From a virus (Duplodnaviria; Caudoviricetes), in IMG/VR virus record IMGVR_UViG_3300028048_000071, positions 68,933-132,932 of that record: a stretch of DNA of 64,000 bases, one strand, 5' to 3'. Under the pieces are notes generated by a model, which saw only the letters and a program-made list of their open reading frames with translations, made no database searches and was not told the DNA's origin. This document shows positions 4,723-19,213 of this stretch, piece by piece. Both the position numbers and the translations under genes were made by a program. Positions within the stretch are counted from its first letter, which is position 1, and the number at the start of each line of letters is the position of its first letter.

Positions 4723-5382
4723 ATGGCTAAGCAAACAATAAATAATCTTGAATCTGCGGCAACTGTTAGAAGCAAGATTAATAGTAACTTTACAGAACTA
4801 TATGACCAAAAAGCTGATAAAAATCACGCATATACAGATTCAAGTTATGGTGCTGCATCAAACGAATTATTTGGTCACGTAAAAATAAATGTTGCTAATG
4901 GCTTAAATGTTAGCGATGGTGTAGTAAGTTTAGCTCTTGCAACGACTACCGGTGCTGGTGCGGTGCAATTAGCTGATTCTCTTACTTCAAATGACCCAAC
5001 AAAAGCATTAAGTGCTGCACAAGGGAAAATTTTAAATGATACTTTAACATCGTTAGACGAAAATACTCCTCCAAAAAATCACGCAGTTGACAATGGTGAT
5101 TATGGACTTGCAACAAGTTCTTTATATGGACATTTAAGAGTTACATCTGGAAATGGATTAACTTTAAACGACGGGACTTTATCACTAAATGCCGCAACTA
5201 CAAGTGCTGCCGGTGCAGTACAATTGGAGGATTCATTAGAATCTCAATCTACTACTAAAGCATTAACTGCTAATATGGGATATTATTTGAATAAACATAA
5301 AGCAGAAGCTTTTAGTGGAACAACAGTGCCAAGTAATAATCTTGGTAGTGATGGAGATATATACTTTTTATTAGAAAATTAA
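4723..5382 (+). CDS. Tail fibre protein with duplicated fibre repeat
   Basis: Two copies of NHA...YG.A....GH...ATT..AGAVQL.DSL.S...KAL. Confidence 0.75.
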   Translation: MAKQTINNLESAATVRSKINSNFTELYDQKADKNHAYTDSSYGAASNELFGHVKINVANGLNVSDGVVSLALATTTGAGAVQLADSLTSNDPTKALSAAQGKILNDTLTSLDENTPPKNHAVDNGDYGLATSSLYGHLRVTSGNGLTLNDGTLSLNAATTSAAGAVQLEDSLESQSTTKALTANMGYYLNKHKAEAFSGTTVPSNNLGSDGDIYFLLEN

Positions 5383-9732: not shown

Positions 9733-10836
9733 ATGCAACTATTAAGTACATTAAATAGTCTTGATAATGTTGCTGATGGTTCTACAAGAAAGCTTCTTAA
9801 AACCGCCACTTCAAGCGGTTCTGGGAATGCAGTAACCGCAGTTAGCATATCAGGCGACACTTTAACTTATACATTAGGTTCATCGTTTTCATTGAGTAAT
9901 CATACTCACGATGCAGCCACAACGTCTGCAGCTGGTTTTTTATCAGCCGCAGACAAAAAGAAATTAGATGCAACTTCAGGTTATTATGGAACTTGTAGTA
10001 CAGCAAAAGGGACTGCCGCAAAAGTTGTTGATTGTAGTAATTATGTTTTAGCAACTGGTGCAGTTATTTATGTCAAATTTACCAACGCCAATGAGTATAA
10101 TGGTACTGCGACATTAAATGTTAATGGTACTGGAGCAAAAGATATTGCTAGAGTAGGTACAACAAAAACAACCAGATATTATTGGAGTGCAGGAGAAGTA
10201 GTCGGTTTTGTATATGATGGTACAAATTATATAATAATTGAAAGAGGAACTGCCTCAACTACTTATTATGGTGTTACAAAATTAATAACAACCGCAACAA
10301 ATACATCTGAGGCTTTGGCGTTAACTCCAAAAGCATTAAATAATTTTGCACAAAATATGATTGCTAATTATGCAGTATATTCATCTTCTTCTACCTATAA
10401 TGTAGGAGATAGAGTTAGATATAGTTATAATACATATGAATGTATAGTGGCTATTTCAACAGCAGAAGCGTGGACTGCAGCTCATTGGAAGGCTTTAGAC
10501 CCTTTACAAACACAGATAGATGAAAAATCTGAGGTTTCTATAAGTAGGAATTTAACTTCTGGAGAAAAAATAGGTACTATAACTATAGATGGAACAGCAA
10601 CTGATTTATATGCTCCTGCTACAGGTAGTGTTAATACGTCTTTGGCTAGTCCACAACAAACATATTATTTAACAGGAGTTCAAACAACTGCTGCTGGGCA
10701 AGGTAATTTATATAATAGTTATTTGTCTAGTACATATACAGGAATAAAATATGTAACTTCTACTTCTCAAGAAGGTGGAAGTTTATATGTAGACGACAGA
10801 GAAGTCGTTACAGGATTATATTATGAAATTTCATAA
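9733..10836 (+). CDS. Tail fibre protein
   Basis: ATLNVNGTGAK, YDGTNY and a CBM5/12-like YNVGDRV motif. Confidence 0.75.
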   Translation: MQLLSTLNSLDNVADGSTRKLLKTATSSGSGNAVTAVSISGDTLTYTLGSSFSLSNHTHDAATTSAAGFLSAADKKKLDATSGYYGTCSTAKGTAAKVVDCSNYVLATGAVIYVKFTNANEYNGTATLNVNGTGAKDIARVGTTKTTRYYWSAGEVVGFVYDGTNYIIIERGTASTTYYGVTKLITTATNTSEALALTPKALNNFAQNMIANYAVYSSSSTYNVGDRVRYSYNTYECIVAISTAEAWTAAHWKALDPLQTQIDEKSEVSISRNLTSGEKIGTITIDGTATDLYAPATGSVNTSLASPQQTYYLTGVQTTAAGQGNLYNSYLSSTYTGIKYVTSTSQEGGSLYVDDREVVTGLYYEIS

Positions 10837-10860
10837 AATAAAAGAAAGGAGAGATAATTA

Positions 10861-13095
10861 ATGGCTACAGTTAAGTTTTATAATGATAAAGAAAAAACTC
10901 AACAAGTATATCCAGAAATTGACCCAGATGGAAATTATCCTGGTGTCACAGTTGGACTTGCCAATAACCTTGTTTCACCAGACGGTATAAATGATATAGA
11001 TACTTGGCAATATCGTTCAACTGGTGGAGAACTTGATATTACTGATGGATATGCAACATTAAAGAAACTTATTGGTACAACTGAATCTTCAACTATAGAA
11101 GAAAGTCTAACACATAACTTAATTACAACTGGTGTAACTTCTGTAACTGTTGATACAAGTACATTTAAAAGTCAAATAAGTACAAGTGGAACATATAATT
11201 TTATATATACTCCAACAATTACTTATTCATCTGCTTTAGTATATTCATTAAATAAAAGCACTTTTGCTAATTATGTAAGTCAAGCAACTGGAACATATAC
11301 ATTTACTTATACTGCTGTTGTTTCACCAGTAGATACATCTAGTGTTATACAAACTTTTACACAATCAACATTTGTTAACAAAGTAAATGAAACACCAGAT
11401 ACTTATACATTTACATATAATGGTTCAAATTGGCAATTAGATGGAACAAACGTAACAATGAGTCAATATGGTATTACAACAAAAGGAACTGAAACAAGTG
11501 GAACAACAATTACTGTTTATTATACAAGTAATTCTTGGTATTACAATAATGCCTCAATTTCTATGAGTAATTATGGTATTTCAACAACTGGCTCTGAATC
11601 TGTTGGAGACACAATTGCTATATCTTATACATCTAATGACTGGATGTTAAATAACACTGCAATAACACTTGCTGATTACGGAATTGTAATTACAGGAGGA
11701 ACTGCAGCAATTGACGATAATATTCAAATAATATTTATTGCTGAACAAGTAGGTGTAATTCAAACTGCAAATCCAACTGGATTATATAGTGTTGGAATGA
11801 ACCAATTTAATAAAGATGGTTCTCAAATATTTAGAAATTATACATTAAATTCATCTGGTGGAATAAGTGCGGCAACTGGATATTATGTAATTTATTTTAA
11901 ATGTATAGGAGGAGAAACTTATACTATTTATAATGAAACACCTTCATCTACTGTTAGAGTTGGTTATAGTGCAACTATCCCAACTACATCAAGCACTGTT
12001 ACATTATTAAGTACAGTTTCATCATCTGAATGGGCTGATGTTCTAGTTAATGACTCATATAAATCACACTATTATCCAAATAATCCTGGATATTTAGTTG
12101 TTGCGACAAGTGACATTGAAAATTTATGTTGTCATTTAACTTGGGAAGCAGTAAAGGATGATGTATATGAATCTTATTTTAATTATACATTACCTATTCC
12201 ATACACTGATAAAAATGGAGATGTAATAACAACTTATGGTTTAGTAAACTTAGATGATGGTACTCAATATTATGATGAAATAAATTTTGAAGACCTTAAA
12301 TGGTATAAGAGAACAACTAGAATTGAATATAGTGCTGAAAACTTGGCAACTGTTCAAGCATTAGGTGTTCCATATTTATATGATGCAAATTGGATTTATT
12401 ATGGTGTTAATACAGTTGAATATAACTTAGAAGACGTTTCTTATTCATATGAAATATCAAACTATGGTACTGAAGAGTTTATTAACTCTGCATTGCCATT
12501 AACTGCAACAATATTCTATCAAGAAAACTTAAGAGATAAAATAAGATTCTCTATGGAAGTTATTGATAATAAAGTTGAGAAAATTGATAGTGCTTCTACT
12601 TATACAAAATATTCAAGTGCAAAAGCATCTTATAACCTAGATAAAGCATTAAGACATATACTTGGTCTTGATGTAGATACATTCTCAACAAGCAGCACTT
12701 ATGCTGTTGGTGATTATGTTGTATACGATGGTAAATTGTGGAAATGTACCACTGCCGTAACAAGTGCAGGAGCTTGGACTGGTAATGGATTATCTGTTAG
12801 AAGTAATAATAATGGAATATTACTTGATATGGACACAACTAAATTTTTAAAATTCTTAGATTCAGATAGACCTGGAAGTCCTTGTGGAATTCCTGAACTT
12901 TATGCAAATGATGGCGGTACATACCAAATTCATTTAACATATGCAACAACATCAAACGATTATCACTTCGCTAATGCTGCTGAATTAGAAGAACAAACTG
13001 GTCTTGTAGTAAGTAGTGCAACTGGTGGAGTATCATTTAGTTATAATAGTTCTTCTGCAAATTGGGAAGAATCATATTTATTTAAAGCAAATTAA
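10861..13095 (+). CDS. Large tail/receptor-binding protein
   Basis: 744 aa, Thr/Ser/Tyr-rich internal repeats; YAVGDYVVYDGKLWKC (CBM5/12-like). Confidence 0.7.
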   Translation: MATVKFYNDKEKTQQVYPEIDPDGNYPGVTVGLANNLVSPDGINDIDTWQYRSTGGELDITDGYATLKKLIGTTESSTIEESLTHNLITTGVTSVTVDTSTFKSQISTSGTYNFIYTPTITYSSALVYSLNKSTFANYVSQATGTYTFTYTAVVSPVDTSSVIQTFTQSTFVNKVNETPDTYTFTYNGSNWQLDGTNVTMSQYGITTKGTETSGTTITVYYTSNSWYYNNASISMSNYGISTTGSESVGDTIAISYTSNDWMLNNTAITLADYGIVITGGTAAIDDNIQIIFIAEQVGVIQTANPTGLYSVGMNQFNKDGSQIFRNYTLNSSGGISAATGYYVIYFKCIGGETYTIYNETPSSTVRVGYSATIPTTSSTVTLLSTVSSSEWADVLVNDSYKSHYYPNNPGYLVVATSDIENLCCHLTWEAVKDDVYESYFNYTLPIPYTDKNGDVITTYGLVNLDDGTQYYDEINFEDLKWYKRTTRIEYSAENLATVQALGVPYLYDANWIYYGVNTVEYNLEDVSYSYEISNYGTEEFINSALPLTATIFYQENLRDKIRFSMEVIDNKVEKIDSASTYTKYSSAKASYNLDKALRHILGLDVDTFSTSSTYAVGDYVVYDGKLWKCTTAVTSAGAWTGNGLSVRSNNNGILLDMDTTKFLKFLDSDRPGSPCGIPELYANDGGTYQIHLTYATTSNDYHFANAAELEEQTGLVVSSATGGVSFSYNSSSANWEESYLFKAN

Positions 13096-13117
13096 TGAAT
13101 GAAAGGAGAATAATTTT

Positions 13118-13279
13118 ATGTTAGAAATAATTAAATCATTCTTCTCCCCTGTAGGGGGGGGCGAACAAGCTTCGCTTCACAGAATGGAAATATACAAAGG
13201 AAGGAGGATTTGCGTCAAGAGTATAGTAACTCTTCAAGCAATTCCGACTTCAATAGAAAGAGAGGTGAAGAGTATCTAA
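13118..13279 (+). CDS. Leader peptide 1 (53 aa in the present G8 state); phase-variable
   Basis: AAAGGAG SD at 13102, ATG 13118, MLEIIKSFFSPVGGGEQ...VKSI, TAA 13277; crosses the G8 tract. Confidence 0.8.
   Translation: MLEIIKSFFSPVGGGEQASLHRMEIYKGRRICVKSIVTLQAIPTSIEREVKSI
13154..13161 (+). repeat. Poly-G tract 1 (G8)
   Basis: G homopolymer in an AT-rich genome, inside the leader ORF. Confidence 0.95.
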
Positions 13280-13359
13280 AATCTTCTTATGGAAGATTTG
13301 CAGATGGAAGCAACGCTTCTGTCTTAATCTCTTCATCTTTCGCAAGTGAAAATATCGTA

Positions 13360-13368
13360 GGGGGGGGG
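13360..13368 (+). repeat. Poly-G tract 2 (G9)
   Basis: Direct reading. Confidence 0.95.
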
Positions 13369-13494
13369 CAGCTACGCTCGAATAATTATTCAGCAAGCAG
13401 TCGCTCTTATAAAGGAGGTGAAGGCAATTACGCTAGCTTAATGTCTAGTGATTTTGCCGGAACCGAGACAATGTTAAACCCTGACCGCATAGTC

Positions 13495-13503
13495 GGGGGG
13501 GGG
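13495..13503 (+). repeat. Poly-G tract 3 (G9)
   Basis: Direct reading. Confidence 0.95.
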
Positions 13504-13650
13504 CGAAATCCATTTGGATTCGTCTTCAAAGAAAGGGGGCAAGCCACTATTTAGACTTGCCTCTTATACACGAAATGATTTCTCTTTCAAGAAGGGAGGT
13601 GCAGGCTTAACAGTCTGTACTCCTTTTTATTATGAAGGAGGTGTGTGTTA

Positions 13651-14034
13651 ATGCAAATTAATAAAGACCTTATTATTAGTGGAACTAATATGACTTTAGG
13701 CGATACAGCCTATAAAGATATATATTCAACAACTGAAACCAAGACTAATAAGGTTTGGATTGATGGTCGTACTATATATAGAAAGGTTATTACTGGAAAT
13801 TTATCTCAGGCACAATGGAATCACGGAATAACTTTTGATACTATTGTTTCTATAGAAGGTGTTTTTATAAATACTAATTCTGGTAATACATTTAATATAC
13901 CTAGTACAAGACCTGATTTTCCTGATTATCAAGTTGGTGTATTTGTGAATAATACATTTATAACTTTAGAACGTGCTACTGGTGCTCAACGTGCGGATAT
14001 GAGTTTTTATGTAGTTTTAGAATATGTGAAATAA
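13651..14034 (+). CDS. Variable fibre-tip/receptor-binding cassette 1
   Basis: MQINKDL start; YSTTETKTNKVWIDGRTIYRK fibre C-terminal motif. Confidence 0.75.
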   Translation: MQINKDLIISGTNMTLGDTAYKDIYSTTETKTNKVWIDGRTIYRKVITGNLSQAQWNHGITFDTIVSIEGVFINTNSGNTFNIPSTRPDFPDYQVGVFVNNTFITLERATGAQRADMSFYVVLEYVK

Positions 14035-14063
14035 CACACACAACAGGCTAACAGCCTAACATT

Positions 14064-14471
14064 ATGGCTAAATTTACAATTAATAAAGACTTCTTTGTAG
14101 GTGATACAAATTATTCTTTAGAGGATATTCCTTTTGGAGTAGAACCCGAAGTCCCATCTAATCAAAATTATTTTAAATTTGGGAATATGATGATTTGTTG
14201 GGGTTGGAGAAACGTAACTTTAAACTGGAATGGGAATGGAGCTTATGCTGATTTTAATTTAGCAAACGATGGAACTCCATATAAAGATACTGCATATAGA
14301 ATTGTTGGGAGTTATGCTGGAAGCACAGCTTATTATGCAGGAAACTGGTGCTGGTTTGAAAGCAAAGGGACGACAAGTGCAAGAGTAAATTGCTGGTGTG
14401 AACAAGCTAATAAACCAACATCTATTATTATAGGTTTTATAGCCATTGGAAGATGGCGTGATGCTGAATAA
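14064..14471 (+). CDS. Cassette 2 (gp53-like fibre C-terminal domain)
   Basis: MAKFTINKDF start; YFKFGNMMICWG...FIAIGRW. Confidence 0.75.
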   Translation: MAKFTINKDFFVGDTNYSLEDIPFGVEPEVPSNQNYFKFGNMMICWGWRNVTLNWNGNGAYADFNLANDGTPYKDTAYRIVGSYAGSTAYYAGNWCWFESKGTTSARVNCWCEQANKPTSIIIGFIAIGRWRDAE

Positions 14472-14507
14472 AAACATTTCGTGATGAGCAAGCCTTTTGG
14501 CGAACTT

Positions 14508-14918
14508 ATGAAGATTAATAAAGATTTAATCGTAGAGGGTACAAATCATACATTAGAAGATATACCTTTTGATATTGATTTATCTGATGTGTATTCTACA
14601 AATGAAACAAAAACAAATAAGGTTTGGATAGATAACAGACCTATATATAGAAGAGTCGTTACCGGTACAGTTACCGCTGCAGGTCAAGGACAAACTGTAA
14701 CCACTATAAGTAATATAAGACAAATCTTGACTATAAGAGGAGTTATGTATTCTAATTATGGTCAATGGTGGAATATTCCTAATTATCACGGAGAAGCAGG
14801 ATATGTAAATTCCATATACTGCGATGCAAATGGAAGAGTCAATTTAGGAGTTGGGAACTTTTATAGTGCCGGTAAACCTTTTATAATTATTTTAGAGTAT
14901 ACAAAATCTACTGACTAA
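14508..14918 (+). CDS. Cassette 3 (paralogue of cassette 1)
   Basis: MKINKDL start chosen by paralogy; YSTNETKTNKVWIDNRPIYRR...LEYTK. Confidence 0.75.
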   Translation: MKINKDLIVEGTNHTLEDIPFDIDLSDVYSTNETKTNKVWIDNRPIYRRVVTGTVTAAGQGQTVTTISNIRQILTIRGVMYSNYGQWWNIPNYHGEAGYVNSIYCDANGRVNLGVGNFYSAGKPFIIILEYTKSTD

Positions 14919-14954
14919 CATTGTCTGAACGGCAAAAAAAATAATGCCGATTCT

Positions 14955-15377
14955 ATGAAAATAAACAAAGACTTAATTATTAGTGATACAAATTATACTT
15001 TAGGAGATGTTGCTGATTTTATATCAAATAAAATAGAAATTAAAGAGCTTGCTTCTACAACAGGAAGTGGCGAAAACATTACAATAGATTTGACCGATAG
15101 TTATAAAAATTATGACTTTTTATTAGTTCAATGGAGTCCATATTCTTTATATGGGAATATTGATTTTTATATTATAGATACTGCTACAATTTTATCTACA
15201 CAATATGGAAATTATCCTTATGAAACCGGACACCTTCAAACAACATCAGTATGGTCAAATGTCGTATTTGGCTTTTCATCAACAACTAGATTTATAGCTA
15301 AATGTGCAAATACAGGAACTTGGGGAAAAGGTTCTTTTAAAATAATTTCTATTAAAGGAATAAAATTACCTCACTAA
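14955..15377 (+). CDS. Cassette 4
   Basis: MKINKDL start; IDLTDSYKNYDFL...IKGIK. Confidence 0.7.
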   Translation: MKINKDLIISDTNYTLGDVADFISNKIEIKELASTTGSGENITIDLTDSYKNYDFLLVQWSPYSLYGNIDFYIIDTATILSTQYGNYPYETGHLQTTSVWSNVVFGFSSTTRFIAKCANTGTWGKGSFKIISIKGIKLPH

Positions 15378-15422
15378 TCACATAATAGAGCGACCGCTCG
15401 TAAATGAGCAAAAGCGAATTAA

Positions 15423-15800
15423 ATGATTATAAACACAGATTTAATCTACCCTATCGGTAGTATATATTTAAGCGTCAACGCAACCAATCCGTCAAAGTAT
15501 TTTGGCGGAGCTTGGGAGCAAATTACATCAGACGCATATTTAAAGATAGTAACTCAAAATGCTGGTTCTTTAGGTGGAACCAGTGTAGACCACAAGATAC
15601 CTATTGAAAGTATGCCTAGTCACGACCACGGTGTGTACGGAGCATTAACTGGAGAAAATAAACCTATTACCAATACTGGTAATGATTGGGGAGTTAATAC
15701 AACACACGGATGGACTACAAATGCCATTTCAAAGACTGGCGGTGGACAGGCTTACTATCCTTATTACTATGGCGTTTATGTTTGGAAAAGAACTGCTTAA
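15423..15800 (+). CDS. Cassette 5 (YPxGSIY...WKRTA family)
   Basis: YPIGSIYLSVNATNPS...MPSHDH...VYVWKRTA. Confidence 0.8.
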   Translation: MIINTDLIYPIGSIYLSVNATNPSKYFGGAWEQITSDAYLKIVTQNAGSLGGTSVDHKIPIESMPSHDHGVYGALTGENKPITNTGNDWGVNTTHGWTTNAISKTGGGQAYYPYYYGVYVWKRTA

Positions 15801-15843
15801 ATATACTCTCTTATGATGTTTTGAAGATTTAGATACAAATCTT

Positions 15844-16233
15844 ATGATTATAAATACAAATATGTTGTTAGCAGCCTATCCTGTAGGTTCGCTATATTTA
15901 ACAACAAATGAAATAAACCCAGGAACCTTATTTGGTGGAACCTGGGAAAAATTGACTGGGGATGCTTATCTTAAAATAGTGACAAGTAATCCTGGTCAAT
16001 ATGATGGTACGTCAGACCAACATAAAATACCTATCAATAGTATGCCTTCTCACAGACACGGTAATAGAGTTACTTTAAATATGTCTCAAGGTGCTGGTCA
16101 AGATAGAAGCCTTGTAGTTGGTGGAGGTCAAGTATGGAATACTGCGGACAATTATCAAAATCAATTTGTTGGTGGTGGACAACCTTATTATCCATATTAT
16201 TATGGTATTTATGTTTGGAGACGTACAGCATAA
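15844..16233 (+). CDS. Cassette 6 (YPxGS...WRRTA family); predicted ON in this genotype
   Basis: YPVGSLYL...MPSHRH...IYVWRRTA. Confidence 0.8.
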   Translation: MIINTNMLLAAYPVGSLYLTTNEINPGTLFGGTWEKLTGDAYLKIVTSNPGQYDGTSDQHKIPINSMPSHRHGNRVTLNMSQGAGQDRSLVVGGGQVWNTADNYQNQFVGGGQPYYPYYYGIYVWRRTA

Positions 16234-16261
16234 TCGGAATTGCTTAATGCAATAAAACTTT

Positions 16262-16435
16262 ATGAAAAATATTTTATTAAATAAAATCCTTCACATCGGG
16301 GGGGGGCAGAAATGTCTGCTCTTCACAAGAAAGGAGGGTTGGCTATTATTTTGTAACGTCAACTCTTCAAGGAATGGAGGTGGCAGACATTTAATATCTG
16401 CTATCTCTTGTGGAGGTGTAATCTTATGCAAATAA
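16262..16435 (+). CDS. Leader peptide 2 (57 aa in the present G9 state); phase-variable
   Basis: ATG 16262, MKNILLNKILHIGGGQK..., TAA 16433 overlapping the start of cassette 7; no SD of its own. Confidence 0.75.
   Translation: MKNILLNKILHIGGGQKCLLFTRKEGWLLFCNVNSSRNGGGRHLISAISCGGVILCK
16298..16306 (+). repeat. Poly-G tract 4 (G9)
   Basis: Direct reading. Confidence 0.95.
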
Positions 16436-16818
16436 ACGTAGATTTAATATATCCTATAGGTTCTTTATATTTAACAACGTCTACTGTATCACCAGCAGTT
16501 TTGTTTGGTGGTACTTGGGAACGCATTAAAGGTAGATGTATTGTAGGTGTAGACGAAAATGACACCGACTTTAATACTGTTAGTAAAACCGGCGGTGAAA
16601 AAACACATACATTGACTGTGGATGAAATGCCAGCACACAATCACAATATTCAAGGTGCGATGAATGGTGCTTCTGGAAGTAGTTGGTGTGTTGCTTTAAA
16701 TAGTGATAGAAGCGTAAACTGGTCTATCACTAATGGGTCACAAAATAAAGGTGGTGGACAAGCACATAACAATCTACAACCTTATTACACTGCTTATATA
16801 TGGCGAAGAACCGCATAA
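16426..16818 (+). CDS. Cassette 7
   Basis: GGAGG SD, MQINVDLIYPIGSLY...WRRTA. Confidence 0.8.
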   Translation: MQINVDLIYPIGSLYLTTSTVSPAVLFGGTWERIKGRCIVGVDENDTDFNTVSKTGGEKTHTLTVDEMPAHNHNIQGAMNGASGSSWCVALNSDRSVNWSITNGSQNKGGGQAHNNLQPYYTAYIWRRTA

Positions 16819-16849
16819 GATTACTTAGATATTAAATTGTCGAATAATT

Positions 16850-17227
16850 ATGAAAATAAACTTAGATTTTATATATCCTGTTGGAAGTATTTATATGAGT
16901 GTTAATGCTACAAATCCAGGAATTTTATTTGGAGGAACTTGGACTCAATTAAAAGATAGGTTCTTACTTGGTGCTGGAAATACATATTCCGCTGGAGATA
17001 CTGGTGGAGAGGCAACTCATACGTTAACTTATAATGAAATGCCTCAACATAGTCACACATTGTATAATGAAAATGCAAGTGGATGGACTTTAAGTAAAGC
17101 ATCTTTAAAAACAGGAACAAATAAAGGATATTCTGGTAATATCCAAATTGGAGATGCTGGAGGTAATCAAGCACATAATAATATGCCTCCATATCTAGTA
17201 GTCTATATGTGGAAAAGAACTGCATAA
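16850..17227 (+). CDS. Cassette 8
   Basis: MKINLDFIYPVGSIY...PPYLVVYMWKRTA. Confidence 0.8.
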   Translation: MKINLDFIYPVGSIYMSVNATNPGILFGGTWTQLKDRFLLGAGNTYSAGDTGGEATHTLTYNEMPQHSHTLYNENASGWTLSKASLKTGTNKGYSGNIQIGDAGGNQAHNNMPPYLVVYMWKRTA

Positions 17228-17273
17228 ATTATTTTGACAAAAAGAGTTGACACTAAAATAATAGTGTTATAAT

Positions 17274-17702
17274 ATGAAAATAAATGAAGATTTAATAATT
17301 AATGGAACGGATTTAAATTTAAATGATATAGTACAAAAAATATCGGCACTTGAAAAATATCAAGTAGAATATAATGCTGATTCAATTACTTTGACATTTA
17401 CAAATAAATATCCTTGTATAGCAATTACATATATGTCTCACGCAGGATGGGGATTTGGAGGAAATGAATGGATTTGGAATGCTGATTTAACTAATTCTGT
17501 TCATTTAGGTTATACTAAAGCCTATGTTAATGGTAATGACTTATTATCAAGATTTATGAGTTCTGTGTCAATTAACTATTGTCCAACTGCGGGAGTAGAA
17601 CATACAACTGTAAGAACTACAACCAAGGGTAACTCTGGTAATAGCAATGGACAATCAGTATGTGTTATTTGTTTACCATTAATAACTAATTCAAAAGAAT
17701 AA
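17274..17702 (+). CDS. Cassette 9
   Basis: MKINEDL start; unrelated C-terminal domain. Confidence 0.7.
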   Translation: MKINEDLIINGTDLNLNDIVQKISALEKYQVEYNADSITLTFTNKYPCIAITYMSHAGWGFGGNEWIWNADLTNSVHLGYTKAYVNGNDLLSRFMSSVSINYCPTAGVEHTTVRTTTKGNSGNSNGQSVCVICLPLITNSKE

Positions 17703-17723
17703 TTATAAGAAATAGAGTAAAAT

Positions 17724-17769
17724 GAAAGGGGAATAACTTAACTAAAATTTTTGTTATTTCCTTTTTTTT
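17724..17769 (+). terminator. Intrinsic terminator closing the tail operon
   Basis: aaggggaataac...gttatttccttt followed by a T run. Confidence 0.7.
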
Positions 17770-17774
17770 ACCGC

Positions 17775-17803
17775 TTGACATTATCTTCTTTTTGTGCTAT
17801 AAT
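17775..17803 (+). promoter_or_regulatory. SigmaA-type promoter
   Basis: TTGACA-N17-TATAAT with extended TG. Confidence 0.85.
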
Positions 17804-17862
17804 GCAATTACAATAGAAGGGAGATAATGTGAGGAGACAATACAAGAAGGGGTGAAACAACA

Positions 17863-18033
17863 ATGAAGAAATATTTATTGTATTTATTACGATGGCAATT
17901 GTCTACTCCAATTTTAGCTATTGTTTTATATATATTCAAAACAAATGAAATTTTAGAAACCATAATAGCCAATTTAATTGGTGGTCTAATTTTCTTTTGG
18001 GTTGATAAATGGATATTTAAAGAAAAGAGGTGA
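17863..18033 (+). CDS. Small membrane protein (56 aa, not in the ORF track)
   Basis: SD, MKKYLLYLLRWQLSTPILAIVL...IFFWVDKWIFK. Confidence 0.65.
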   Translation: MKKYLLYLLRWQLSTPILAIVLYIFKTNEILETIIANLIGGLIFFWVDKWIFKEKR

Positions 18034-18039
18034 GTTGGA

Positions 18040-18240
18040 ATGAATAATGATTTTCTAAACGATGATATTAAAGATGCTCTTATTGAAAGAGATGGATTTA
18101 GACAGCAAGTTGAAGATTTAACTAAAATATTAAAAGAAATTCATCTTTATTTGGTGGGGAGATTTAATGAGACTCAAGATACAAAATATTTAGATGACTT
18201 AATTAAATTCCAAGAAATGTGTGGTGACTATTATGGATGA
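18040..18240 (+). CDS. Hypothetical protein
   Basis: ORF with GAGGTG SD. Confidence 0.6.
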   Translation: MNNDFLNDDIKDALIERDGFRQQVEDLTKILKEIHLYLVGRFNETQDTKYLDDLIKFQEMCGDYYG

Positions 18241-19213
18241 TAGTCAATATATTATACAGATAATTAAATCTGACAGAGAGTACCCTTATGGGCAATGTAT
18301 AACACCTAAAGAAATTATTCATAAAGATAGTATTACATCGGAGGATATTATTATTGTAAATGATAAACTTAATAAACTTGATGATATTGACTTATATTTA
18401 GTAGATTTAAAAGTTAAATTTGCACAAATAAATCCTGAAAAATATTATTTAAGTTACTCTGGAGGAAAAGATAGTCACTTGCTTTATTGGTTCATTAAAA
18501 ATTATCTAAAATGCAATGATATTAAAATTATAGGGATAAATACTTATATGGAAAATCCTCAAATCCTAAAAAGAATTATTAAAAATAGTGATAAGGTTTT
18601 ACTGCCTACTCTTAAACCATTTGAGATAAAAGAAAAATACGGAATTCCTTGTTTTAGTAAAGAACAAGATTTCTATATATATTATTATCAGAATGCACTT
18701 AGAAAAGGTAAAAAACCTAGCAAAACAATACAACAGAAAATTGATGGGACTTATGATAAAGGATTTAGTGGTATTTCTAAAAAGGCAAGAGAATATGTAA
18801 AAAGTGGTAATGCTCACAATATAACTCACTTGTGTTGCTATTATTTAAAGAAAAAACCAGCACACGACTTTGAAAAAGAAACTGGTTTAAAGCCTATATT
18901 GGGAATTAGAAGTGAAGAATCTGCTTTAAGAAAAAGACAGTATACAACTTGCTTTTCTAAAAATGGTAAATTCACGCCAATACATAATTTAACAGATGAC
19001 ATTTTAGAAGGAATCATATCTAAATATAATATAGAAGTTCCAGAAATATATAATCATATAAAGAGGACTGGATGTGAAGGTTGTCCTTATGGTAGTTATT
19101 ATCACGAAACAGAAAAAGAACTTGAATTAATGACTCCAGCCAAAAAGAAGTTTGTTTGTGAGTTGTTTAAAGAAAGTTATGAAGTTTTAGGAATTGAGGT
19201 GAAGGAAGAATGA
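18233..19213 (+). CDS. PAPS reductase family (PP-loop) protein
   Basis: SYSGGKDS, CCYYLKKKP, GIRSEES..R, RTGCEGCP. Confidence 0.85.
   Translation: MDDSQYIIQIIKSDREYPYGQCITPKEIIHKDSITSEDIIIVNDKLNKLDDIDLYLVDLKVKFAQINPEKYYLSYSGGKDSHLLYWFIKNYLKCNDIKIIGINTYMENPQILKRIIKNSDKVLLPTLKPFEIKEKYGIPCFSKEQDFYIYYYQNALRKGKKPSKTIQQKIDGTYDKGFSGISKKAREYVKSGNAHNITHLCCYYLKKKPAHDFEKETGLKPILGIRSEESALRKRQYTTCFSKNGKFTPIHNLTDDILEGIISKYNIEVPEIYNHIKRTGCEGCPYGSYYHETEKELELMTPAKKKFVCELFKESYEVLGIEVKEE

Follow-up and report, generated by a model that had tools for sequence, protein, structure and literature searches.

What can strong Shine-Dalgarno (SD) sequences be for that stand before no gene, in a locus where most genes start without one? 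This question is raised by a locus, here called W, in the Caudoviricetes phage (Duplodnaviria) of IMG/VR record IMGVR_UViG_3300028048_000071, of which we analyzed the 64,000 nucleotides from position 68,933 to 132,932. This stretch, the window, is the 3' half of the complete 132,932-bp record and has a G+C content of 30%; positions below are those of the window, and all features described in it lie on the plus strand. Leader 1, 555 nt long (13096-13650), separates a tail-fibre gene from six small genes, the cassettes c1 to c6 (ATGs at 13651, 14064, 14508, 14955, 15423 and 15844), after which leader 2 (16234-16425), with the ATG of its own open reading frame (ORF) at 16262, precedes three further cassettes, c7 to c9 (ATGs at 16426, 16850 and 17274). 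The addressing of SD-less genes by SDs that lie in these leaders looks like an undescribed way for a slippery repeat to choose a host-recognition protein. On balance, and by a small margin, we believe that each orphan SD anchors the ribosome as one half of a bipartite initiation site, whose second half, an AUG without an SD, follows 0.46-3.05 kb later on the same polycistronic mRNA and is used via a terminating leader ribosome.

SD strength was expressed as the duplex energy (kcal/mol) between the 20 nt upstream of a start and the 3' end of the 16S rRNA. A preliminary description of the sequence had claimed that cassettes 2-6, 8 and 9 and leader 2 start without an SD, unlike most genes of the window, and the energies agree: c2 reaches -2.5, c3 -1.9, c4 +0.3, c5 -1.9, c6 -1.0, c8 +0.1, c9 -1.8 and the ATG of leader ORF 2 -0.3, compared with -7.6 or stronger at about 35 of the 44 other plus-strand starts. 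Strong SDs of their own precede c1 (-15.5) and c7 (-13.1). The seven strong leader SDs named in the same description were all recovered as SD-like sites (13199-13208, 13258-13267, 13412-13421, 13531-13538, 13593-13601, 16329-16338 and 16374-16383), with energies from -10.7 to -15.6 kcal/mol. The density of such sites is 18 per kb in leader 1 and 21 per kb in leader 2, whereas the cassette array and 20 kb of other genes have 3.1 per kb. Most orphan SDs are the full anti-SD complement GGAGGTG(A), a motif identical to that at genuine genes of the phage. That they head no substantial ORF was borne out as well, since GTG matches behind them sit within GGAGGTG itself and TTG 13210, 2 nt past its SD, opens a 114-codon frame which is the leader's read-on frame and the sole long frame there; among the leader sites checked, no usable, properly spaced start codon follows any orphan SD. 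The combination of SD-less starts with orphan SDs in the leaders is confirmed as a genuine feature of the locus. As a separate observation on the SD-less ATGs of the window and related loci, base -1 is T in 20 of 24 and codon -1 is NTT in 16 of 24.

The two halves are predicted to be joined by base pairing. The 45-60 nt after each SD-like element were folded against the 40-45 nt before each SD-less ATG, using RNAduplex matrices instead of strict ungapped fixed-register stems, which proved too rigid because bulges split genuine stems. An address strand of 30-55 nt begins 0-4 nt past every orphan SD, or past a G tract if the stop has no other SD before it, and the spacer strand of the helix ends 5-10 nt upstream of its ATG. 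All eight SD-like elements that precede a programmed leader stop in W have one cognate spacer each, and the partners are strictly nested: in bank 1 the element at 13208 is matched with leader 2, 13267 with c6, G tract 2 with c5, 13420 with c4, 13538 with c3 and 13601 with c2, and in leader 2 the elements at 16338 and 16383 are matched with c9 and c8. These cognate duplexes comprise 21-31 bp with free energies (dG) of -19 to -28 kcal/mol and, for most spacers, are stronger than 300 control windows. SD and AUG are separated in primary sequence by 463 nt (c2) to 3054 nt (leader 2), so that the closing helices span 0.46-3.05 kb and enclose whole genes, none being a local hairpin within a single initiation region. 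At c6, for example, the arrangement reads GAGGTG-aaga-helix on the leader side and helix-aaatctt-ATG on the cassette side; here and in the two further examples that had been quoted beforehand (c4 and c2) the letters are exactly as given.

The same specificity and geometry recur in related loci. Pooled statistics comprised one locus per clade (W, L005, L015, L020 and L019), with 24 modules and 112 non-cognate pairs. Across these five clades the nested-order partner is the row minimum in 23 of the 24 modules, the mean dG being -24.6 kcal/mol for cognate and -12.4 kcal/mol for non-cognate pairs (Mann-Whitney p ~1e-13), and the geometry (x<=3, 4<=y<=9) is found in 21 of 24 cognate but 16 of 112 non-cognate pairs (Fisher p ~7e-12). 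Counted as for T4 genes 25 and 38, the unpaired path from SD to AUG with the helix formed is about 7-13 nt in 21 of the 24 modules. The helix sequences themselves are unrelated between clades, with longest perfect complements of 8-14 nt to the cognate leader versus 5-10 nt to the leaders of other clades. The earlier suggestion that the long-range helix lands an SD beside a distant ATG is therefore supported by comparative evidence as a rule, carried by 21 of 24 cognate pairs over five clades; we would not read the arrangement as a free-standing ribosome-binding site, since the SDs are predicted to be masked and the stops lie inside the strand.

Within leader 1 of W, orphan SD 1 (AGGAAGGAGGA, 13198-13208, -11.7) is matched with the spacer before ATG 16262 of leader ORF 2 (dG -20.5; spacer strand and ATG, 16217-16264); its leader strand (13210-13251) includes TAG 13224, the programmed stop, which lies in the loop of a local hairpin, and the helix has a 12-bp perfect core (13236-13247 / 16233-16244) plus TTGCGT / ATGCAA. 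Orphan SD 2 (GAGAGGTG, 13260-13267, -10.7) belongs to c6 (dG -19.4; 15805-15846), the leader strand 13272-13307 holding the stop TAA 13277; in addition, a distal stem joins 13347-13365 with 15806-15824. For c5, G tract 2 itself (-11.4 against the anti-SD) takes the place of the SD, as had been proposed: the leader strand 13371-13421, with TAA 13383 inside, forms a duplex of -26.6 with the c5 spacer (15378-15425), and its distal end covers the next SD at 13412-13421. Orphan SD 3 (AAAGGAGGTGA, 13411-13421, -15.6) is matched with c4 (dG -26.5 in a 60-nt window; 14915-14957) through a three-part helix with leader strand 13423-13476, in which GGCAATTA, TTTTGCCG and AGACAATG pair with TAATGCC, CGGCAAAA and CATTGTCT, and the stop TAA 13439 lies in a local hairpin loop.

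Further down leader 1, orphan SD 4 (GAAAGGGG, 13531-13538, -10.7) is matched with c3 (dG -25.7; 14464-14510) by a leader strand at 13543-13589 with TAG 13552 inside and a core CACGAAATG (13569-13577 / 14475-14483) that is also present in an unconstrained 4.6-kb fold. Orphan SD 5 (AGGGAGGTG, 13593-13601, -14.6) goes with c2 (dG -27.0; 14020-14066); the stop TAA 13608 lies inside its leader strand (13603-13659), the distal part of which is the c1 SD and start region and pairs with the 3' end of c1. In leader 2, orphan SD 6 (GAAAGGAGGG, 16329-16338, -12.1) corresponds to c9 (dG -24.6; 17229-17276), with two perfect 10-mers and TAA 16354 in the leader strand 16342-16377, and orphan SD 7 (ATGGAGGTGG, 16374-16383, -13.8) to c8 (dG -27.8; 16812-16852), with TAA 16392 inside the leader strand 16386-16429 and the distal part of this strand, the region of the c7 SD and ATG 16426, pairing with the c7 3' end. 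Unconstrained folding of the 4.6-kb region returned the c3, c4, c5 and c9 helices plus the distal c6 stem over G tract 2. This predicted fold leaves no leader SD-like element unpaired: the partner is usually a CU-rich run close by, and it is common for a module's distal stem to cover the SD of the next; the SDs are accordingly predicted to be masked at rest, by local CU-rich runs or by a neighboring module's distal stem.

Two observations concern single modules. The c4 leader strand (13422-13454) also pairs with the c8 spacer of bank 2 (16819-16842) at -23.5 kcal/mol and with the correct geometry, which probably reflects shared module ancestry, cross-talk between the banks being possible. At c3, an in-frame GTG and ATG (14481-14486) lie 8-9 codons before the conserved MKINKDL start, directly past the helix core, and are absent in L012.

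The second component of the locus is its repeats. G runs of at least 7 occur in the 64 kb only as four leader tracts, and the cassettes are without any: tract 1 (G8, 13154-13161; 8-11 long in relatives), tract 2 (G9, 13360-13368), tract 3 (G9, 13495-13503) and, in leader 2, tract 4 (G9, 16298-16306). They lie in leader ORFs with an SD and an ATG, that is, in a translated frame, and, being confined to the leaders, are not on/off switches of a repeat-containing cassette. Each tract selects a frame: past it, one frame reads on, and the other two each end ahead of the following tract, at a stop specific to one module. In its current phase, with G8 in tract 1, leader ORF 1 (13118-13279, with its own SD at 13100-13109) terminates within the c6 module, at TAA 13277. 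All 24 modules have their programmed stop 5-18 nt past the SD or G tract; in 23 of them it falls within the address strand, where it splits the helix into 7-22 bp under the ribosome footprint and 7-18 bp beyond. The read-on frame ends in a TAATG overlap on c1 (TAGTG in L002 and L015) or 7 nt past the c7 ATG; at c1 of W, the cassette's own SD and ATG span 13633-13653, and the frame ends at TAA 13649-13651. Stop and restart are close in primary sequence at c1 and c7 only, all other outputs being 0.46-3.05 kb away.

In every complete locus, the number of outputs per leader equals twice the number of repeat tracts plus one: three tracts give seven outputs and one tract gives three in W, L005 has three tracts and seven cassettes, and L015 and L020 each have 1+1 tracts and five cassettes. 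Tract 3 is 8 long in L003 and L017, 9 in L005 and 10 in L004, and the tracts of the W clade measure 8-11. Since close relatives do not share the same tract lengths, their assemblies represent different output states, W at c6, L002, L012 and L005 at c1, L003 and L017 at c2, and L004 at c3.

Taken together, SDs that are paired at rest and a stop 5-18 nt downstream inside the strand make each site look built for a terminating leader ribosome, i.e., for reinitiation. A ribosome would enter at leader ORF 1 via the SD of that ORF, and the length of the slippery repeat would set its reading frame, two of three frames meeting a stop 5-18 nt past one particular SD. On reaching this stop, the ribosome would have removed the mask and unwound the proximal helix half, and its anti-SD could hold the SD, while the distal half (7-18 bp outside the footprint) would keep the spacer tethered. 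After release, the proximal stem may re-zip and place the distant AUG in the P site of the 30S subunit, about 7-13 unpaired nt from the SD, and that cassette alone would be translated, or the second leader as a relay. We infer that ribosomes are handed over to the distant start in this manner and that the sites are not used by free 30S subunits. For the locus as a whole, we see an even chance that it works as a translational multiplexer, in which an SD-held 30S subunit is handed an AUG up to 3 kb away by an addressable helix, and four repeats and one mRNA yield a heritable nine-way choice of tip with a leader relay.

Other readings of this anatomy have to be weighed. Were free 30S subunits to load the SD-helix-AUG sites constantly, as static split ribosome-binding sites, leader ribosomes would merely switch off the modules they cross and all cassettes past the stop would be made; the identical SD-helix-ATG geometry would be expected here too, and T4 genes 25 and 38 (see below) are a precedent for a free-standing site. 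We nevertheless regard this as unlikely, given that the predicted fold pairs all SD-like elements of the leaders and the next SD is often covered by the distal stem of the neighboring module, that the position of the stop (5-18 nt past the SD and, in 23 of 24, in the strand) plays no part in such a model, and that the rule of twice the tracts plus one suits one output per stop. RNA coliphages are the classical case of long-range helices that upstream translation opens, and this precedent, together with the A/U-rich spacers and the pairing of the SDs with CU-rich runs in the fold, speaks for an MS2-type unmasking, in which the helices sequester the spacers, leader ribosomes melt them, the freed A/U-rich start, without an SD, serves directly or through reinitiation by ribosomes coming from the cassette before it, and the SD-like runs are only pause sites or G-rich halves of local hairpins. 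We think it unlikely, given that the helices end 5-10 nt before the AUG and leave it unpaired, that the full SD motif GGAGGTG(A), as at genuine genes, abuts the helix in 21 of 24 modules, and that a read-on ribosome would free several spacers at once. Coupling from cassette to cassette across SD-less spacers of 29-46 nt is disfavoured in addition, because termination-reinitiation requires overlap or a very short distance between stop and start (PMC10666635).

Ribosome bypassing from the leader stop to the cassette, in the manner of T4 gene 60, would yield leader-cassette fusions, and a landing codon matching the take-off codon would be found in front of the ATG. Such an identical in-frame codon is present just before the ATG in 6 of 24 modules, in all of them the common ATT or GTT and mostly ATT. 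At gene 60 take-off sites, a hairpin contains or adjoins the stop codon and an SD-like element is close, an arrangement that the leader stops resemble. The matching codon is absent in the other 18 modules, however, so that bypassing was rejected as a general mechanism, and with an in-frame stop directly before the ATG in two modules and the conserved M-x-I-N-x-D/N motif beginning at the ATG of all cassettes we hold it to be very improbable. Just as little credence can be given to a control at the DNA or transcript level, with short inverted repeats as recombination sites or with one promoter per cassette. Inverted repeats do exist in the DNA, and promoter-like hexamers lie over the c9 spacer (17234-17262 and 17247-17275); yet each repeat pair is a different sequence, unlike recombinase sites, all cassettes have a single orientation, and the helices tolerate G-U pairs and bulges. 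The scan for promoter-like sites gave no support for per-cassette promoters, as no such site recurs before the cassettes, the count of 62 is a modest excess over the 47 +/- 6 of shuffles, and the -10-like box at c9 directly adjoins the ATG, which would make any transcript from it begin inside the ORF.

The hand-over of an SD-held subunit to a distant AUG, which we prefer to these alternatives, has several points to answer for. To our knowledge, there is no experimental precedent for the swap of an mRNA segment by a post-termination 30S subunit over such distances. The SD-start spacing of this phage has a median of 5 and a range of 1-12 nt; the unpaired path of about 7-13 nt plus the helix end is longer than usual and falls at the long end of this range. 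Three modules are off geometry (L005 c5, L005 c3 and L020 leader 2), and the cognate duplex of L019 c3 is weak (-13.7). Covariation within clades is thin: among the RNAduplex-predicted pairs of the W clade, 3 changes are compensatory, 16 one-sided and 31 broken, peripheral pairs being mostly concerned and part of the effect being due to indels, which break the alignment mapping in W-type leaders, and the L005 clade is nearly invariant and hence uninformative for covariation. Finally, L018 has leader modules without a partner, and its c2 and c3 spacers are without a cognate leader strand.

Compensatory differences are seen between paralogous modules, namely W c6 (GTATCTAAA / TTTAGATAC), L005 c4 (GTATTTAAA / TTTAAATA(T)C) and L005 c6 (GTATTTAAGT / ACTTAAATAC), and between W c8 (GACATTTAAT / ATTAAAT-TGTC) and L019 c2 (GATATTTAAT / ATTAAATATC), with GACATTT / -TGTC in the former and GATATTT / -TATC in the latter.

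Searches with the tail fibre and the cassettes brought in the related loci (L002-L005, L012, L015 and L017-L020). The fibres of L002 and L012 are 92% and 79% identical to that of W and the loci have the same design as W, and L003, L004, L005 and L017 (fibre 74-75% identical) have one leader with 3 G tracts and 7 cassettes. In L015, whose fibre is 55% identical and which reads TGA as Trp, leader 1 carries (CAAT)7 in place of poly-G, leader 2 carries G9, and there are 5 cassettes; despite TGA coding for Trp in the cassettes, the SD modules, programmed stops and address helices (10200-13000) are all kept. L019 and L020 have other fibre genes and leaders with (ATAC)14-15 and (AAGC)8, and L018, with an L015-like fibre, has (ATCA)13 plus (AC)9 and is partly decayed, so that the repeat types across the relatives comprise poly-G, (CAAT)7, (ATCA)13, (AC)9, (AAGC)8 and (ATAC)14-15. 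Among 80 viral loci with Gp10_C cassettes, repeat-bearing leaders were found in L018, L019 and L020 only.

A comparison of L005 (11095-14149) with L017 (10704-13777) revealed identical or near-identical spacers around different cassette bodies, c2 starting with MQINKDLIIEGT in one and MIINVDLIYPIG in the other. Different bodies between identical spacers imply that the spacers behave as conserved addresses, and cassettes seem to be exchanged by recombination at them. The W c8 spacer was also found verbatim before c3 of L018. In this latter locus, two repeat types, four SD modules and four cassettes were noted (4770-5135), with a clear cognate pairing only between the module at 5076 and the c4 spacer, and nothing in the locus is a partner for the module GGTATTTAAAATC; L018 looks like a partly decayed or recombined switch. 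L015 holds a spacer-like remnant past its last cassette (~12935-12950), similar to the c2 spacer and followed by a 15-codon ORF.

Parts of this design have counterparts in known systems. At T4 genes 38 and 25, structure between SD and AUG cuts the distance from 22 to 5 nt and from 27 to 11 nt, respectively (Nivinskas 1999; Malys & Nivinskas 2009; reviewed in PMC3014915), gene 25 being functional at 11 nt (PMC3014915). There, as in W, SD and AUG are too distant in primary sequence and structure restores a working distance (here a predicted 7-13 nt or so), but in T4 this is a hairpin of about 20 nt, formed locally at a single gene, whereas here a domain of 0.46-3.05 kb is closed by a gene-specific address helix, with 7-8 sites per locus that are apparently used only by a ribosome terminating at that SD. 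In the pil1 locus of Streptococcus gallolyticus, a leader-ORF repeat operates a two-state switch via a transcription terminator (Danne et al. 2014, PMC3894217). As there, the simple-sequence repeat in W is situated in a leader ORF and outside the structural genes, and would set how far the ribosome reaches and thereby control genes for surface structures; here, by contrast, a tract offers three outputs, chaining and relay of the tracts raise the number to nine, and control would be at translation initiation via long-range helices, with no conserved terminator. The only candidate for a ribosome-sensitive intrinsic terminator between leader and genes is a single terminator-like hairpin at 13598-13621, followed by CCTTTTTATT (region to 13640), in the c2 module ahead of c1; since L005 does not conserve it, it is probably no attenuator. 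Campylobacter phages, according to the work of Sorensen et al. (2021, Cell Rep 35:109214) as cited in PMC10877375, have hypermutable poly-G tracts in receptor-binding genes. To the extent described there, phage homopolymer tracts likewise give heritable diversity of host recognition, although in that account they act in-gene as on/off switches, whereas the leader tracts of W choose among separate cassettes.

In caliciviruses, a termination upstream ribosomal binding site (TURBS), an element complementary to rRNA, tethers the small subunit for restart, which resembles the rRNA-complementary element just before the leader stop that would keep the small subunit on the mRNA. Bacterial termination-reinitiation needs overlap or a few nt (PMC10666635), in contrast to a restart up to 3 kb away, for which base pairing would bring about closeness. 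The start of c1 conforms to the known type, with its classical TAATG overlap. Long-distance RNA interactions control translation in the phages MS2 and Qbeta, the MS2 helix masking a complete ribosome-binding site, and in the shunt of cauliflower mosaic virus, which is eukaryotic and dependent on the 5' end, a short ORF ends at the foot of a large structure and the ribosome restarts beyond it. Translation of an upstream ORF acting on a long-range helix, and a short ORF whose end at a structure permits restart, are shared features; neither MS2 nor the plant virus, though, provides an SD from afar or addresses several genes. Indeed, none of the systems compared supplies an SD to an AUG kilobases away or addresses several genes, and no published description of this design was found in the literature searched.

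If the interpretation is correct, a start codon can be served in cis by an SD that lies kilobases from it, which would extend the rules of bacterial initiation and reinitiation, and a bacterial ribosome-binding site would have two halves that can be separated and programmed. Phages would then switch among many receptor-binding tips by slippage and RNA pairing, without recombinases, reverse transcriptases or inversions. The SD-address-AUG modules would be portable, as in the apparent natural exchange of cassette bodies between the conserved spacers of L005 and L017, a property that suggests a simple scheme for selecting one gene out of N. Compensatory mutations can be predicted for each module separately, and the design offers a marker of host-range plasticity for uncultured gut and rumen phages.

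Regarding the remaining features of the locus, an Rfam scan of 12000-18500 yielded chance matches below threshold only, and blastn against annotated phage records returned short cassette similarities only, the leaders being without an annotated relative. The idea that the leader encodes a conserved protein was dropped, as its read-through peptides of 185 and 142 aa have no Pfam match. All nine cassettes open with M-x-I-N-x-D/N, and c5 to c8 are tip domains of the T4 Gp10 C-terminal type. The tail-fibre gene that precedes the locus (10861-13095, 744 aa), which served as the query for related loci, has an SD and encodes a CBM_5_12 domain. Directly past the array, before a small ORF at 17863, lies a perfect sigma-70-type promoter (17775-17803) consisting of TTGACA, 17 nt and TATAAT, with a TG.

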